DNA from: Lachnospiraceae bacterium
Lineage (GTDB): Bacteria > Bacillota > Clostridia > Lachnospirales > Lachnospiraceae
Length of the DNA stretch: 64,000 bases
NCBI GenBank assembly: GCA_017548765.1
Contig: JAFYZH010000057.1
Location: 50,673-114,672 of the forward strand
Direction: 5' to 3'
Shown: piece after piece, positions 60,789-62,615 of the stretch
How the letters are laid out: the number at the start of each line of letters is the position of its first letter
Numbering within the stretch: the first letter of the stretch is position 1
The notes under the pieces: generated by a model
What the model saw: only the letters and a program-made list of their open reading frames with translations
Told to the model about the DNA's origin: nothing
Database searches by the model: none
Position numbers and translations under genes: made by a program

Positions 60789-60984
60789 GGCTAAGGGGAA
60801 TGCCCAAAAGGCATTTTCCTTAGCCTTTTTCTTAGCCATTATGCCTTGATTAGGCATGAATTTTGAGTCGTCCGGCTAAGAAAACCGCCGAAACAGCGAT
60901 TATCTTAGCCAGTGTGACTTTATTGGACACGAAATTCGAGCTGGTTGGCTAAGGGAAGTCCTGAAAATAGAGTTTTCCTTAGCC
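60789..60984 (+). repeat. tandem hairpin array D: 3 units (period 85/73 bp), GGCTAAGG...CCTTAGCC family
   Basis: Hairpins at 60789-60825, 60874-60910 and 60947-60984. It starts 26 nt after the pgi stop with no intervening terminator. The first linker contains ATGCCTtgatTAGGCAT, which resembles the array B stem. Confidence 0.8.
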
Positions 60985-61193
60985 GGATCACTTTAGTAGA
61001 GTGTCTTTAATAACTTGTAGCATAAATACCCCTCTTCATCATATGGACATTTTCTTGTTTTTTTGTTACACTGTATTCGATGTATATGTGGACTGGACGA
61101 GTTGTCTCGTGACTGGATTTCAGTGTGAGTTTGAAACAACGCAGTATAAGCATTATCCCATATTAATACTTCAACGATTTCGGAGGACTGATT

Positions 61194-61463
61194 ATGTTTC
61201 GCATGTGGTGTAAACTTTGCAAAAGCAACCACTTATTAGCCGACACGACCATCGAGGATGCATCCGACCTGAACCGCACGCGGAAGGTCTTCGCAGCATT
61301 GGAGGCGGCTTGTCATCAGTTCGATTTAGCCGTCCCTATCTGGCTCAACTCCAATATCGATGAATTCAAAAAAACATCAAAAACCCGCTTCCGCGATGAC
61401 AGTTTCATAGAAAAGATCCCCTTCGACTTTCTGGAGATCCAGGTGATCGAAGAGGACATTTGA
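61194..61463 (+). CDS. hypothetical 89-aa protein in AT-rich cassette
   Basis: GGAGG lies 7 nt before the ATG. No motif recognised. Convergent with the next gene (14-nt gap). Confidence 0.4.
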   Translation: MFRMWCKLCKSNHLLADTTIEDASDLNRTRKVFAALEAACHQFDLAVPIWLNSNIDEFKKTSKTRFRDDSFIEKIPFDFLEIQVIEEDI

Positions 61464-61477
61464 AAACATTTGCTCAT

Positions 61478-62293
61478 TCAATATCCTAAAGTAGTCTTTA
61501 GGTTTTTTAACATTTTTCGAACTTCCCTGGTGTTCAGCGGGTATTTCCCGGTCTCAAAGGTCCAGATCAAAGAAACGTGTTGAAACAATCCGGCCGACTC
61601 ATATTTGCGGATCTTCAGGAACGCGTTGTTCCGATACTCCATGTCGTCCATCATCCCGAAATGCTCCCAGTACACTTCCCTTCGTTCGAACATATTCAGA
61701 AGCGTAAAGTCCGGGTGCACGCTGCCAGATCCGAGTTTCAGGGGCTTTTCATAAAGAAAGGGAATCGACATTTCGTCCAACAGATCTGCGAGTATGAGCT
61801 CTGATTTCGATCTGACCCGCAGCCCTTGCCGGGTGTAATACTCCGGGAACTCCTCGGAAAATGCAACCCCTTCGTATTCTTGCTTCTTCCATTCGGAAAG
61901 GAATGCTTCATCCGATTTATATATGGGCATGACTAAGTCTCTCTTTAACATGGATAATCGTTTCATCGCTTCATTAAACGGGTCTTCCACCCAACCTTTT
62001 GACAGAACTTTTAATTTCTCCAAAGTTTCGTTCAGTTGAATTATCAGTTTCTCGTCGTATTCAATTTGAGCCAGGATCTCAGCGCGCTTGAGATCTTTTT
62101 TCTTTATGTATTTCCCGGTTTTTTCTGCTCCTTTTTCACGCATAAAATACTGACAGCTGCCTCCGTGCCGCGCCACTCTTAGCGAGACGCCTTCCGGGAC
62201 TTGTTGTTTCAGCCGCTCTAATTCGCGTGCAACCTTCTTCTTGCTATCCTCTAGTGATGTAATCTCGTTGAGTATTTCCTTAGTTCTGAGCAT
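61478..62293 (-). CDS. hypothetical protein with coiled-coil N-terminus and restriction-endonuclease-like (TnsA/PD-(D/E)xK-like) C-terminal region
   Basis: AAGGAGG RBS. VRSKSELILADLL...FLYEKPL...HPDFTLL...VYWEHFGM has the E...PD...E spacing of this fold, but no clear catalytic Lys. The fold call is low confidence. Confidence 0.5.
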   Translation of the reverse strand: MLRTKEILNEITSLEDSKKKVARELERLKQQVPEGVSLRVARHGGSCQYFMREKGAEKTGKYIKKKDLKRAEILAQIEYDEKLIIQLNETLEKLKVLSKGWVEDPFNEAMKRLSMLKRDLVMPIYKSDEAFLSEWKKQEYEGVAFSEEFPEYYTRQGLRVRSKSELILADLLDEMSIPFLYEKPLKLGSGSVHPDFTLLNMFERREVYWEHFGMMDDMEYRNNAFLKIRKYESAGLFQHVSLIWTFETGKYPLNTREVRKMLKNLKTTLGY

Positions 62294-62359
62294 TCTTCCT
62301 CCTTATTTGTTGTTGTATTGTTTTGTTTGATTTTTGTTGAGCTGGTTTTCTGCCAGGGA

Positions 62360-62615
62360 GGCTAAGGAAATTGCGATATTGGCGTTTCCCTTAGCCTTCT
62401 GGTACTCTATGAGCGGGTTTCATTTTCCTTTGGGCTAAGATAATTACGATATCAGTATTTTCCTTAGCCATATGTCACCTGTTAAGCGAATTTCATCTCC
62501 TATCTGGCTATGAGAATTGAGATATTCGCGTTTTTCTTAGCCTGTGGGAGAACGTTGAGCGAGTTTTGCCTCTCATCTGGCTAAGGAAATTACAATAATC
62601 TCGTTTTTCTTGGCT
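62360..62615 (+). repeat. tandem hairpin array E: 4 units, period exactly 73 bp, same family as array D
   Basis: Hairpins at 62360-62396, 62433-62469, 62506-62542 and 62579-62615. The linkers are also related to each other (..GAGCG(A/G)(A/G)TTT..). Confidence 0.85.

Follow-up and report, generated by a model that had tools for sequence, protein, structure and literature searches.

Predicted nucleases of a ~270-aa coiled-coil family are accompanied by arrays of lineage-specific palindromes spaced in whole helical turns

Introduction

Repeat arrays linked to a protein have repeatedly opened new biology and provided new tools, as exemplified by CRISPR, type III toxin-antitoxin (TA) systems, TIGR-Tas and REP/RAYT. 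The locus described here lies in a 64,000-nt stretch of Lachnospiraceae DNA (hereafter the window) and comprises two arrays of palindromic hairpins, termed D and E, that flank two convergent genes encoding proteins of 89 and 271 aa, the second of which is a predicted nuclease. The explanation favoured here, whose chances as a whole we put at about even, is that D and E are distinct arrays built from a single lineage-specific palindromic repeat, which belongs to the gene for the 271-aa protein, and that gene and arrays would together represent an old, vertically inherited chromosomal module.

Type III TA systems (ToxIN, CptIN, TenpIN and AbiQ/antiQ) and this locus share a layout in which direct repeats in tandem immediately precede a lone nuclease gene and run in its orientation; here, array E stops 66 nt short of the 271-aa start codon. 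Repeat and protein apparently form cognate pairs in both cases and several paralogues may occur in one genome. However, the protein here combines a PD-(D/E)xK domain with a coiled coil rather than adopting a ToxN, CptN or TenpN fold, and searches of Pfam, NCBIfam, PADLOC and PHROG gave no match to the ToxN/AbiQ, CptN or TenpN families. The repeats differ as well, with long (51-107 bp), often degenerate units that lack a wobble signature in their arms, recur at multiples of 10.5 bp, carry phased A-tracts and are found on the downstream side of the gene and between neighbouring genes as well.

REP/REPIN-RAYT (REP-associated tyrosine transposase) systems resemble the locus in that a lone, vertically inherited gene is flanked by its own short palindromes, that paralogues pair with different palindrome families and that the repeats are intergenic and often clustered. 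Nevertheless, the fold here is restriction endonuclease-like and not that of an HUH Y1 (IS200/IS605-like) transposase, no HUH Y1 domain being present in the proteins of the locus, and the units are direct, tandem and set at a fixed, helically phased spacing, unlike inverted REP doublets. Spread of the palindrome also appears local (~5 kb) rather than genome-wide, as far as the 64-kb window that was scanned extends. Direct repeats in whole helical turns on curved DNA are likewise a feature of phased site arrays (ParR-parC of R1, SopB-sopC of F, the omega-heptads of pSM19035 and iterons with Rep), some of which contain an inverted repeat and which, as here, lie just upstream of the gene for the presumed binding protein. 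In contrast to these, the locus has no partner ATPase and no replicon, being chromosomal and situated among housekeeping genes; its units are much longer (5-10 helical turns) and its protein is a nuclease-fold enzyme with catalytic-type residues instead of a ribbon-helix-helix, helix-turn-helix or ParB-type protein.

Interspaced arrays that are not CRISPRs, lack cas genes and are linked to predicted nucleic-acid-interacting proteins, including one PD-(D/E)xK nuclease, have also been reported (Altae-Tran et al. 2023, PMC10910872). The proteins concerned, which comprise DUF3800, a 513-aa PDDEXK_ATPase, an AddB-like nuclease/helicase and GGDEF loci, do not include the ~270-aa family. Those arrays carry hypervariable spacers, whereas the linkers of the Lachnospiraceae arrays are homologous within any one array; in Fibrobacter arrays the linkers are unrelated and 23-65 nt long. 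A further relationship is with PDC-S68, a PADLOC candidate defence gene whose C-terminus (model positions 1071-1218 of 1221) matches residues 107-265 of the 271-aa protein (E = 5.6e-26). Only this part aligns and full-length membership was rejected. PDC-S68 and the related helicase proteins are ~1,200 aa in length and contain ATPase or helicase modules, unlike the ~270-aa protein with its coiled-coil N-terminus and adjacent array; we know of no report of arrays accompanying PDC-S68 or AAA ATPase/RecD-like helicase proteins.

Organization of the locus

The features of the locus are collected in Table 1. Both the hairpins of the GGCTAAG..CTTAGCC type and the two convergent ORFs had been anticipated by the original prediction, and both were borne out. 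Seven hairpins are present in total, three in D and four in E. Five of these (three in D and two in E) are exact copies of GGCTAAG-N15-30-CTTAGCC, a pattern for which shuffled sequence gives an expectation of 0.00, and the other two are degenerate and in register. Units recur every 73 bp in array E (73, 73 and 73 bp), whilst in D the spacings are 85 and 73 bp, the extra 12 bp between D1 and D2 arising from the duplication of the D1 3' arm. The D1 stem is 16 bp long and is followed by TTTTT, and this hairpin probably doubles as the pgi terminator. A search of the 66-nt leader between hairpin E1 and the 271-aa gene found no consensus promoter or terminator.

Table 1. Features of the locus, in positions of the 64,000-nt window
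Feature	Position	Strand	Basis or remark
pgi (glucose-6-phosphate isomerase)	59417-60763	+	NCBIfam NF010697, 717 bits, full length; context gene, outside the module
Hairpin D1 (GGCTAAGG..CCTTAGCC)	60789-60825		GGCTAAG-N15-30-CTTAGCC pattern match
Tandem 12-bp duplication of D1 3' arm (TTTTCCTTAGCC)	60814-60837		Tandem Repeats Finder and repeat search
Hairpin D2	60874-60910		Pattern match
Hairpin D3	60947-60984		Pattern match
89-aa gene	61194-61463	+	ORF between array D and the nuclease-fold gene; not part of the module
Gene for 271-aa array-associated protein	61478-62293	-	ORF; structure model and alignment
A/C-rich leader, 66 nt, from hairpin E1 to start codon	62294-62359	-	Contains RBS AAGGAGG
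Hairpin E1, unit nearest to the 271-aa gene	62360-62396		Pattern match
Hairpin E2	62433-62469		Pattern match
Hairpin E3, degenerate arm (GGCTATGAG)	62506-62542		In register with E1/E2
Hairpin E4, distal, degenerate, 3' arm CTTGGCT	62579-62615		In register with E1/E2
Intrinsic terminator of upstream beta-CASP gene; outer limit of array E	62713-62749	-	Inverted repeat
beta-CASP metallo-beta-lactamase RNase gene, truncated by window end	62809-64000	-	Context gene; within block inverted in relatives

Hairpins of the GGCTAAG type are confined to the surroundings of the 271-aa gene, where they make up arrays D and E together with F (L006, 1-260) and G (L002, 11903-11939), and four intergenic regions within ~5 kb of the gene bear them; none was found in the other 58 kb of the window. 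Copy number varies, array D having three units here and six in the related locus L005. No Rfam family reached its gathering score in the window, and matches around the locus were at chance level (E up to 1). A CRISPR array was considered and rejected: the E units are alike (74-77%) with their linkers included and no cas genes are present, the beta-CASP gene scoring 251 bits against the Cas14 model, for which the cut-off is 800.

The relative orientation of D and E, which had been taken to be the same, could not be upheld as such. Loop alignments give totals of 13 for the same orientation and 12 for the inverted one, and a repeat search matches D1 and D2 to E better in the inverted (82% and 74%) than in the direct (70% and 60%) sense. 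Base skew also hints at an inverted arrangement, whereas whole units aligned from the D array of a relative, which is more regular, lean slightly towards the direct one, a preference that arises because the centre of the linker (GAATTC) is itself palindromic. These four approaches disagree, and neither the palindromic hairpins nor the loops and linkers decide between the two arrangements.

A resident gene between the arrays and an inversion in relatives

The original prediction read D and E as a single array of at least seven units, lying 3' of pgi, that had been cut by a 1.3-kb two-gene cassette inserted into a linker. The common arm of the two arrays is in keeping with such an event, and elsewhere (L016 and L040) a family gene can sit within one co-oriented array. 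Further support came from a proposed shared linker tail, GAGCTGGTT, which precedes both D3 (60938-60946) and E1 (62339-62347). Both copies are indeed present, but they are out of register, since the 9-mer abuts the hairpin in D and lies 12 nt ahead of it in E. The linker local score of 9 stands at the 99th percentile for a single comparison but, being one among 40 comparisons, is not significant after multiple testing. Similarly, the interval between the arrays is AT-rich as described (43.5% GC over 61000-62340 versus 53.5% in the whole window), yet it is a weak indication of a foreign source, the resident 89-aa gene having a GC content of just 47%.

The residency of this gene follows from its relatives, which occur without the 271-aa gene and, in 11 loci, still near pgi. 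Metagenomes contain 147 relatives of the 89-aa gene, mostly with no 271-aa gene nearby; at 61-68% identity the 271-aa gene is lacking, the 11 loci near pgi being among these, and at L093, the one such locus that was read, there is no room for an array beside the 89-aa relative. Conversely, among 80 loci of the 271-aa family the 89-aa gene occurs solely at L008, which is the same locus in a relative. Although the protein has no match in Pfam, NCBIfam, PADLOC or PHROG, its gene is, on these comparisons, a conserved gene of Lachnospiraceae that stands outside the module.

The nearest variant genomes (L001, L091 and L092) provide a second line of evidence. Here the entire stretch running from the 89-aa gene to the beta-CASP gene is reversed with respect to pgi and DUF436, and the D-equivalent array moves with the upstream side of the 89-aa gene and does not adjoin pgi. 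The placement of an array in the pgi 3' region is therefore a by-product of inversion and not a property of that region, and the order array, 89-aa gene, 271-aa gene, array is older than the inversion that brought D beside pgi. Decay of the gene and of its hairpins is also evident in these genomes. In L091 and L092 the 271-aa gene is reduced to a 147-bp remnant and the hairpins flanking the 89-aa/271-aa pair, which have a different arm (TTATAGCC), are all decayed, whilst L001 has lost the 271-aa gene and retains hairpin G with a broken arm.

A comparison of relatives in search of an empty site or uninterrupted array turned up the same gene order in some and, in others, the inverted block containing a decayed gene; none had a continuous array. 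No empty/filled site pair with defined junctions was found among them; in the case of hairpin G, the intergenic sequence of L091 could not be aligned. As had been noted from the outset, the locus has no integrase or transposase and, the hairpins themselves aside, no terminal inverted repeat or target duplication. On the basis of the resident 89-aa gene, the inversion history, the lack of an empty site and the out-of-register linker join, an array split by a cassette was rejected and is, with the orientation of D and E also ambiguous, scarcely credible. The alternative offered alongside it, in which the arrays are the ends or targets of a cassette with a nuclease-like gene that may serve in defence or addiction, comes much nearer to the evidence, as the arrays do accompany the 271-aa family and the nuclease fold is supported.

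The 271-aa protein and its family

The family of the 271-aa protein numbers 7,172 representatives at 50% identity, with at least 578 loci in species-representative genomes, among them Lachnospiraceae, Fibrobacter and Treponema. It has no entry in Pfam, NCBIfam or Rfam and no description in the literature searched; PHROGs gave weak matches only, and sequence-profile searches of the PDB returned coiled-coil noise only. In the AlphaFold models (pLDDT 89.6 for the full-length protein and 86.8 for the C-terminal domain alone), residues 1-100 form a helical hairpin (coiled coil) with an inserted beta-hairpin, and residues ~150-271 form a PD-(D/E)xK (restriction endonuclease-like) domain. The latter was modelled separately because full-length Foldseek searches are diluted by the coiled coil. 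Its leading PDB matches, headed by Bax1 (E = 4.7e-3, probability 0.99) and followed by DrdV, 3ijm, the R2 endonuclease domain, Vsr and BamHI, are nearly all PD-(D/E)xK nucleases, with modest E-values and no one family standing out; I-Bth0305I was matched with a TM score of 0.65. The modelled alpha-beta-beta-beta-alpha-beta core places the protein in the PD-(D/E)xK superfamily as a predicted nuclease.

Eight residues (R161, S162, K163, E165, E182, D195, E210 and H211) are invariant, and remain so at 31-39% identity. A candidate metal site composed of E165, P194-D195 and E210 is invariant down to 31% identity. The canonical lysine is off its usual place, E210 being followed by H211 and the invariant K163 lying elsewhere, and a Vsr-like or EDxHD-like variant of the active site is possible. 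Between close strains the middle of the protein diverges fast, with 74-80% nucleotide identity against a background of 90-97%.

Genomic context suggests vertical inheritance. Contigs bearing the family are chromosomal and up to 3.2 Mb in length, and 17 loci have the common order comEC-like gene, array, family gene, holA. Across 80 loci no conserved partner gene was found, only syntenic housekeeping genes. IMG/VR contains no relatives of the family, and on plasmids there is no full-length match, only the nuclease domain at the ends of AAA ATPase/RecD-like helicase genes. Three unverified faecal 'phage' contigs matched the family, and the one inspected is free of arrays.

Association of arrays with the family

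Of 72 family loci, 49 have a tandem palindrome array in the 650 bp upstream of the gene, compared with five of 57 control stretches taken ~2 kb further upstream (Fisher p = 2e-12), and the 80 family genes themselves contain none. In Lachnospiraceae, Fibrobacter and Treponema the enrichment directly upstream of family genes corresponds to an odds ratio of 22. Arrays flank the gene on both sides in five loci (L011, L015, L016, L023 and L040). The array that accompanies a paralogue in the same population genome (P0037, locus L088) is built on another arm, GGCTAACAAA, and in general the arm is particular to each lineage and paralogue and shifts in concert across all arrays around one gene. No array was detectable in about one-fifth of family loci, nor in L171, which is 30% identical.

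The window also contains three arrays of the same build that adjoin unrelated genes; no remnant of a family gene was found beside them, their neighbours being PHP, DUF7010, ABC transporter and GH127 genes. These arrays, the resemblance of D1 to a pgi terminator and the general agreement of the arrays' A-rich strand with local transcription might suggest that all such arrays are generic intergenic tandem repeats, such as terminators or mRNA-stability elements, whose proximity to the 271-aa gene is incidental. This we consider very improbable given the 22-fold enrichment, the paralogue-specific arms and the joint decay of gene and array in L091 and L001.

Helical phasing and the case for RNA

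Array periods cluster at 53, 64, 74, 85, 95 and 105 bp, all of them multiples of 10.5 bp. In a periodogram, 62 array spacings give a peak at 10.5-10.6 bp and a phase of ~0 (R = 0.83 over all values, rising to 0.996 for the means of the six classes; null fraction 5e-5). The quantum is kept in irregular arrays (95/85/95, 83/73 and 104/107/63), the 85-bp spacing of D being a trivial product of its 12-bp arm duplication. In 17 of 40 arrays the AA-dinucleotide spectrum reaches its global maximum at 10.4-10.7 bp, as against a null of ~11% (p = 3.6e-7), and in 29 independent hairpins three A-tracts recur ~10 bp apart, at -12 to -9, -2 to +1 and +7 to +13 from the hairpin centre. Array E of the window lacks the AA periodicity (z = 0.7), and the periodicities in general were found after looking, in array lineages that are not mutually independent.

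These properties bear on whether the arrays act as DNA or as RNA. Folding energies of whole arrays, which track base composition, do not separate the two strands (sense strand the more stable in 18 of 33; Wilcoxon p = 0.37). By analogy with type III TA systems, units of hairpin and A-rich linker that are transcribed together with the gene or ahead of it could bind, perhaps be processed by, and neutralize a toxic endonuclease, with paralogue-specific arms insulating cognate pairs from one another. The position of the array directly upstream of the gene and in the same orientation in most loci, its A-rich sense strand (A exceeds T in 29 of 33 arrays) and its unstructured A/C-rich linkers would all suit this proposal, as would the distinct arms of paralogues in one genome and the fast-diverging middle of the protein. 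In several loci no more than 25-40 nt separate the array from the start codon, too little to accommodate a promoter; the array must therefore be transcribed, which would suit an RNA role equally well. When 26 loci were scanned for consensus sigma-70 promoters upstream of, within and after the arrays, 23 gave no match. In Fibrobacter loci the RBS is directly preceded by a hairpin and T-run reminiscent of the ToxI/ToxN terminator, and some units contain a second or interleaved hairpin, for instance those of L042, whose interleaved inverted repeats have the topology of a pseudoknot.

Other observations are difficult to reconcile with RNA. Single-sided arm changes in 26 arrays comprise 27 that give G-U, 19 that give A-C and 71 others, with five compensated; G-U pairs are not in excess over A-C (p = 0.30) and most changes abolish pairing, so the arm variants, as sequences, betray no wobble tolerance. 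Neither the 10.5-bp quantum nor the phased A-tracts has a rationale in RNA. The units are often only 60-90% alike, in contrast to the antitoxin repeats of ToxIN, CptIN and TenpIN, which are near-identical and 34-45 nt long, and the protein fold is unrelated to those of the corresponding toxins. Some arrays are situated on the downstream side of the gene, in intergenic regions nearby or well away from any family gene, and Lachnospiraceae loci have no terminator between array and gene. An RNA-repeat antitoxin is thus considered rather unlikely.

A proposed model of cognate sites on duplex DNA

We favour instead, at roughly even chances, a reading in which the array consists of cognate sites that the nuclease-fold protein would bind as double-stranded DNA, the whole being an old, vertically inherited module. 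The 271-aa protein would dimerize through its N-terminal coiled coil, with each nuclease-fold domain reading one arm of the palindrome on duplex DNA, the arm centres being ~27-35 bp, or roughly three helical turns, apart. With successive sites on the same face of intrinsically curved DNA, bound dimers could then stack into a higher-order nucleoprotein complex. By covering the 5' region of its own gene, this complex may serve in autoregulation or in sequestering the nuclease. Were the sites nicked or cleaved from time to time and then repaired, the units would stay similar to one another and change in number; the same process may plant further sites in intergenic regions close to the gene (D, F and G) and encourage rearrangements like the inversion at this locus. 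An intact nuclease with sites in its own chromosome would need a restraint, which counts against the duplex-DNA reading.

A related proposal is that the palindromes are selfish repeats served by their own nuclease, in the manner of REP/REPIN-RAYT: the protein would recognize the palindrome, as hairpin or duplex, and cut-and-repair would copy units into tandem arrays and nearby intergenic regions, with the gene inherited vertically. The cognate palindromes that flank the gene, each paralogue having its own arm, would be expected of such a system, as would hairpins of the gene's type in four intergenic regions within ~5 kb, arrays with other arms in ordinary intergenic regions of the window, the variable copy number among close strains, an inversion bounded by array positions and synteny that is stable over many species. 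However, there is no HUH or DDE transposase, the GGCTAAG hairpin is not dispersed over the other 58 kb, and no empty/filled site pair has defined junctions. The units are direct and tandem, not inverted REP pairs in REPIN style, and helical phasing is not explained by selfish spread alone. As a complete account this proposal appears unlikely, but it is compatible with, and not exclusive of, the reading of the arrays as duplex-DNA sites.

Significance

We know of no described array type that combines a lineage-specific palindrome, spacing in multiples of 10.5 bp and phased A-tracts. That these loci constitute a new class, in which a ~270-aa protein with a coiled coil and a restriction-endonuclease fold is paired with an array of palindromic sites set in whole helical turns on curved DNA, the array being, on the level of DNA, a partner that docks, sequesters or regulates the nuclease, is a tentative proposal whose chances fall somewhat short of even. 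Addiction, defence and chromosome organization are candidates for the pay-off to the cell.

Palindrome arrays of this kind cause assemblies to break and, in rumen and gut genomes, may be mistaken for CRISPRs; they also mark sites of rearrangement, exemplified by the inversion at this locus. If the arms are read sequence-specifically, the many pairs of paralogue and arm would offer a natural repertoire in which a small nuclease-fold protein recognizes DNA (or RNA) in a programmable-looking way. If the DNA-level reading is true, the system would be either the protein-DNA equivalent of antitoxins made of repeat RNA or a repeat symbiont driven by a nuclease, and thousands of gut and rumen bacteria would carry it, as yet without a name.

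Hairpin arrays around the 271-aa gene

The source genome is a metagenome-assembled rumen Lachnospiraceae of 53.5% GC. GGCTAAG/CTTAGCC hairpins form two groups, arrays D and E (see table), with two ORFs in between: one of 89 aa (plus strand) and one of 271 aa (minus strand). The raw observation of hairpin arrays, a lower-GC interval and two ORFs is borne out by the coordinates, by shuffled sequence, which yields no hairpins of this type, and by the GC content of the interval (43.5% vs 53.5%). Array E keeps a strict period of 73 bp; in array D the first two hairpins are spaced at 85 bp because of a 12-bp duplication of the 3' arm. 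The first of these, D1, has the look of a terminator for pgi: a 16-bp stem and then a T-run. The 'same orientation' originally ascribed to D and E cannot be established: hairpin and linker centre are both palindromic, and four tests, including base skew, disagree. The supposedly shared linker tail, the 9-mer GAGCTGGTT, abuts the hairpin in D and lies 12 nt off in E, and its score is unremarkable after counting 40 linker comparisons.

Positions of pgi and of the hairpin arrays in the window
Feature	Window position	Period (bp)	Arm	Remark
pgi	59417-60763
Array D, three hairpins	60789-60825, 60874-60910, 60947-60984		GGCTAAG/CTTAGCC	3' of pgi
Array E, first two hairpins	62360-62396, 62433-62469			perfect
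Array E, last two hairpins	62506-62542, 62579-62615			degenerate
Tandem hairpin array, same build	8477-8700	61	ATGTCGTAA
Tandem hairpin array, same build	33212-33560	75	TATGCCTAA
Tandem hairpin array, same build	37409-37770	74	GCCACCAAAG

Just past array E, the region's best sigma-70-like match (62670-62699, plus strand; TTGAAA, 18-nt spacer, TATATT) faces into the terminator of a beta-CASP metallo-beta-lactamase gene, with the 271-aa gene behind it, and is probably a chance match. Against the NCBIfam type VII CRISPR Cas14 model, the beta-CASP gene itself (62809-64000, minus strand) reaches 251 bits, well short of the 800 cut-off; it is an ordinary beta-CASP RNase and no cas gene.

Comparison with related loci

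Relatives of the locus were retrieved by exact-protein look-up of pgi. Two (L002 and L003) are the same locus from other samples, and a third, L001, is a variant with flanks 98.5% and 93.7% identical; here the stretch from pgi to DUF436 is inverted, shares just ~80% identity and is devoid of both the 271-aa gene and the arrays. The inversion polymorphism spans the whole pgi-DUF436 block (L001 7350-9950 vs L002 7350-11320, the latter corresponding to window 60764 to beyond 64000). As the inverted block is ~80% identical and its flanks 94-98%, L001 looks like a recombinant into which a module-free version of the block was swapped. Also in L001 is a 169-bp tandem repeat unrelated to the hairpin arrays (11902-12267; 2.2 copies, 100% matches), 3' of the UDP-glucose pyrophosphorylase gene.

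A metagenome scan returned 147 relatives of the 89-aa protein. Those that are 61-68% identical come mostly from the human gut and have no 271-aa gene nearby, and in eleven of their loci the 89-aa gene is still near pgi. In the one locus read among them (L093) a dehydrogenase gene intervenes, and the adjacent gene begins 75 bp from the 89-aa gene, so that no array could fit upstream. In L091 and L092 (83% identical) the block is oriented as in L001, and all that remains of the 271-aa gene is a C-terminal piece of 147 bp adjoining the 89-aa gene. Decayed hairpins with a different arm, TTATAGCC, occur both 5' of the 89-aa gene and in the gap that separates this piece from the terminator of the beta-CASP gene. 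From these comparisons it follows that array, 89-aa gene, 271-aa gene, array and beta-CASP gene have long stood in this order, that the block was inverted in the window's lineage, an event that put array D behind pgi, and that the arms on both sides have changed in concert between lineages.

The original prediction, a single array in the 3' region of pgi split by a two-gene cassette, is therefore wrong: it disagrees with the gene order of relatives and with the occurrence of the 89-aa gene without the 271-aa gene, and among the relatives none shows a continuous array or empty site. Its fallback, that the arrays are ends or targets of the cassette and partner a nuclease gene, was right in spirit, in that the arrays track the 271-aa gene family, for which a nuclease fold is predicted.

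Association of arrays with the gene family

Among species-representative genomes (Lachnospiraceae, Fibrobacter, Treponema and Oscillospiraceae), at least 578 loci carry a homologue of the 271-aa gene, and 80 of these were fetched. In 33 of the 80, Tandem Repeats Finder detects an array no more than 500 bp upstream of the gene. A more sensitive k-mer periodicity count found one in 49 of the 72 loci with enough upstream sequence, whereas control stretches score in 5 of 57 cases when taken about 2 kb further upstream and in 0 of 80 when taken within the gene (Fisher p = 2e-12); its weaker cases likewise peak at 63-64 or 73-74 bp. Arrays flank the gene on both sides in L011, L015, L016, L023 and L040. 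Across the family, arms vary by locus (GGCTATAA, GCAATAA, GCAACA, GCGAACAAA, TACTGTAA, TACCGGCAAAA and GGGGCGTATAAA, among others), and the arm beside a paralogue from the same population genome is again different, GGCTAACAAA. In 17 loci a comEC-like gene, the array, the family gene and holA follow one another, which points to long vertical residence of the module.

Around the 271-aa gene, GGCTAAG-type hairpins fill four consecutive intergenic regions (D, E and, outside the window, F in L006 and G in L002), and none occurs elsewhere in the window. Array F (L006 1-260), upstream of the beta-CASP gene, has 3-4 units in L006 and is a mere remnant in L002; site G (L002 11903-11939 and 11975-11995) lies between DUF436 and the UDP-glucose pyrophosphorylase gene. 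L001, which has lost the 271-aa gene, retains hairpin G with a broken arm.

In L016 (3950-4003) the final array unit is truncated after its 5' arm, directly abutting the ribosome-binding site and start codon, and the gene thus starts inside an array unit. Fibrobacter loci of the family (L052 3880-3986; L063 3860-3958) have the conserved motif TTTTGTATATTACC in common, with a hairpin and then a T-run between array and ribosome-binding site; their arrays consist of conserved 41-43-bp palindromes separated by unrelated linkers of 23-65 nt.

In the three other arrays of the window, A-tracts lie centrally and behind the 5' arm. These arrays stand in ordinary intergenic DNA next to PHP, DUF7010, ABC-transporter and GH127 genes, have neither a family gene nor a remnant of one in their neighbourhood, and may be left over from lost paralogues or be targeted by paralogues elsewhere.

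The 271-aa protein

Homologues of the 271-aa protein number more than 945 at 90% clustering, all 'hypothetical' and often several per genome; at 50% clustering the family has 7,172 representatives, nearly all of 255-290 aa. It matches no family in Pfam or NCBIfam and is absent from IMG/VR. In the full-length AlphaFold model (pLDDT 89.6), a long helical hairpin, into which a beta-hairpin is inserted, precedes an alpha/beta domain. When this domain is modelled alone (pLDDT 86.8), its leading matches are nearly all restriction-endonuclease-fold nucleases: Bax1, DrdV, 3ijm, the R2 endonuclease domain, Vsr, BamHI and I-Bth0305I. Residues 107-265 find matches in the C-terminus of the PADLOC candidate PDC-S68 (E = 5.6e-26) and in the terminal parts of plasmid genes whose annotation is AAA ATPase or RecD-like helicase. 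Invariance of R161, S162, K163, E165, E182, P194, D195, E210 and H211, even at 31-39% identity, suggests an active enzyme.

The central part of the gene (window 61700-62000, residues ~60-160; L002 8401-8700) is only 74-80% nucleotide-identical to the L005/L006 genome against a background of 90-97%, and over array E, the leader and the first 58 codons the two genomes agree at 99-100%. The mid-gene divergence points either to a mosaic produced by recombination or to rapid change in the central helical region.

DNA or RNA as the active form of the arrays

Array periods fall into classes of ~53, 64, 74, 85, 95 and 105 bp. When 62 spacings are scanned from 6 to 20 bp, the periodogram peaks at 10.5-10.6 bp with zero phase, and irregular arrays hold the same quantum (95/85/95, 83/73, 104/107/63). 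Of 40 arrays, 17 have their strongest AA-dinucleotide period at 10.4-10.7 bp (~11% expected); array E of the window lacks this AA periodicity. The periodicities were found post hoc, and the array lineages are not independent. Across 29 independent hairpins, A-tracts occur at -12..-9, -2..+1 and +7..+13 from the hairpin centre, and phased A-tracts with such an AA period are a signature of curved DNA. Arm variants include 27 G-U and 19 A-C changes, with no G-U excess, and most changes (71) are non-pairing; the arms are therefore conserved as sequence and not as pairs. Periods, A-tracts and arm variants all point to double-stranded DNA, and action of the arrays in that form is the favoured reading, with middling confidence.

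That the repeats work as RNA is unlikely by comparison. Pointing towards RNA, the sense strand of the arrays is A-rich, and in several loci the array reaches to 25-40 nt from the start codon with no promoter between, so that it must be transcribed there; the array-gene layout also resembles that of type III toxin-antitoxin loci, from which the module differs in toxin family and RNA signature, having only single features in common. In L042 (3-288) two inverted repeats, CGCGCGG..CCGCGCG and GAGACTAAA..TTTAGTCTC, are interleaved in every 64-bp unit; if transcribed, they would have H-type pseudoknot topology. Repeat propagation of the REP/RAYT kind, less probable still, is compatible with DNA binding; the module again has single features in common with such systems and the HUH transposase is absent.

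Relation to known systems

The module also has single features in common with centromere-like or iteron arrays, and differs in the absence of a partition ATPase or replicon. Non-CRISPR repeat-array systems (PMC10910872) likewise have single features in common with it, and differ in their hypervariable spacers and in involving proteins other than the 271-aa family. The module is no CRISPR array, Rfam has no family matching the arrays, and no description of the module was found in the literature searched. Cultured carriers from the Hungate collection are Lachnospiraceae bacterium AC2031 (L025, with at least five 73-bp units) and FE2018, along with Butyrivibrio sp. VCD2006, WCD3002 and MB2005. 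The module is of a large, apparently undescribed array-plus-nuclease kind, and its mechanism is now testable in such cultured rumen isolates.
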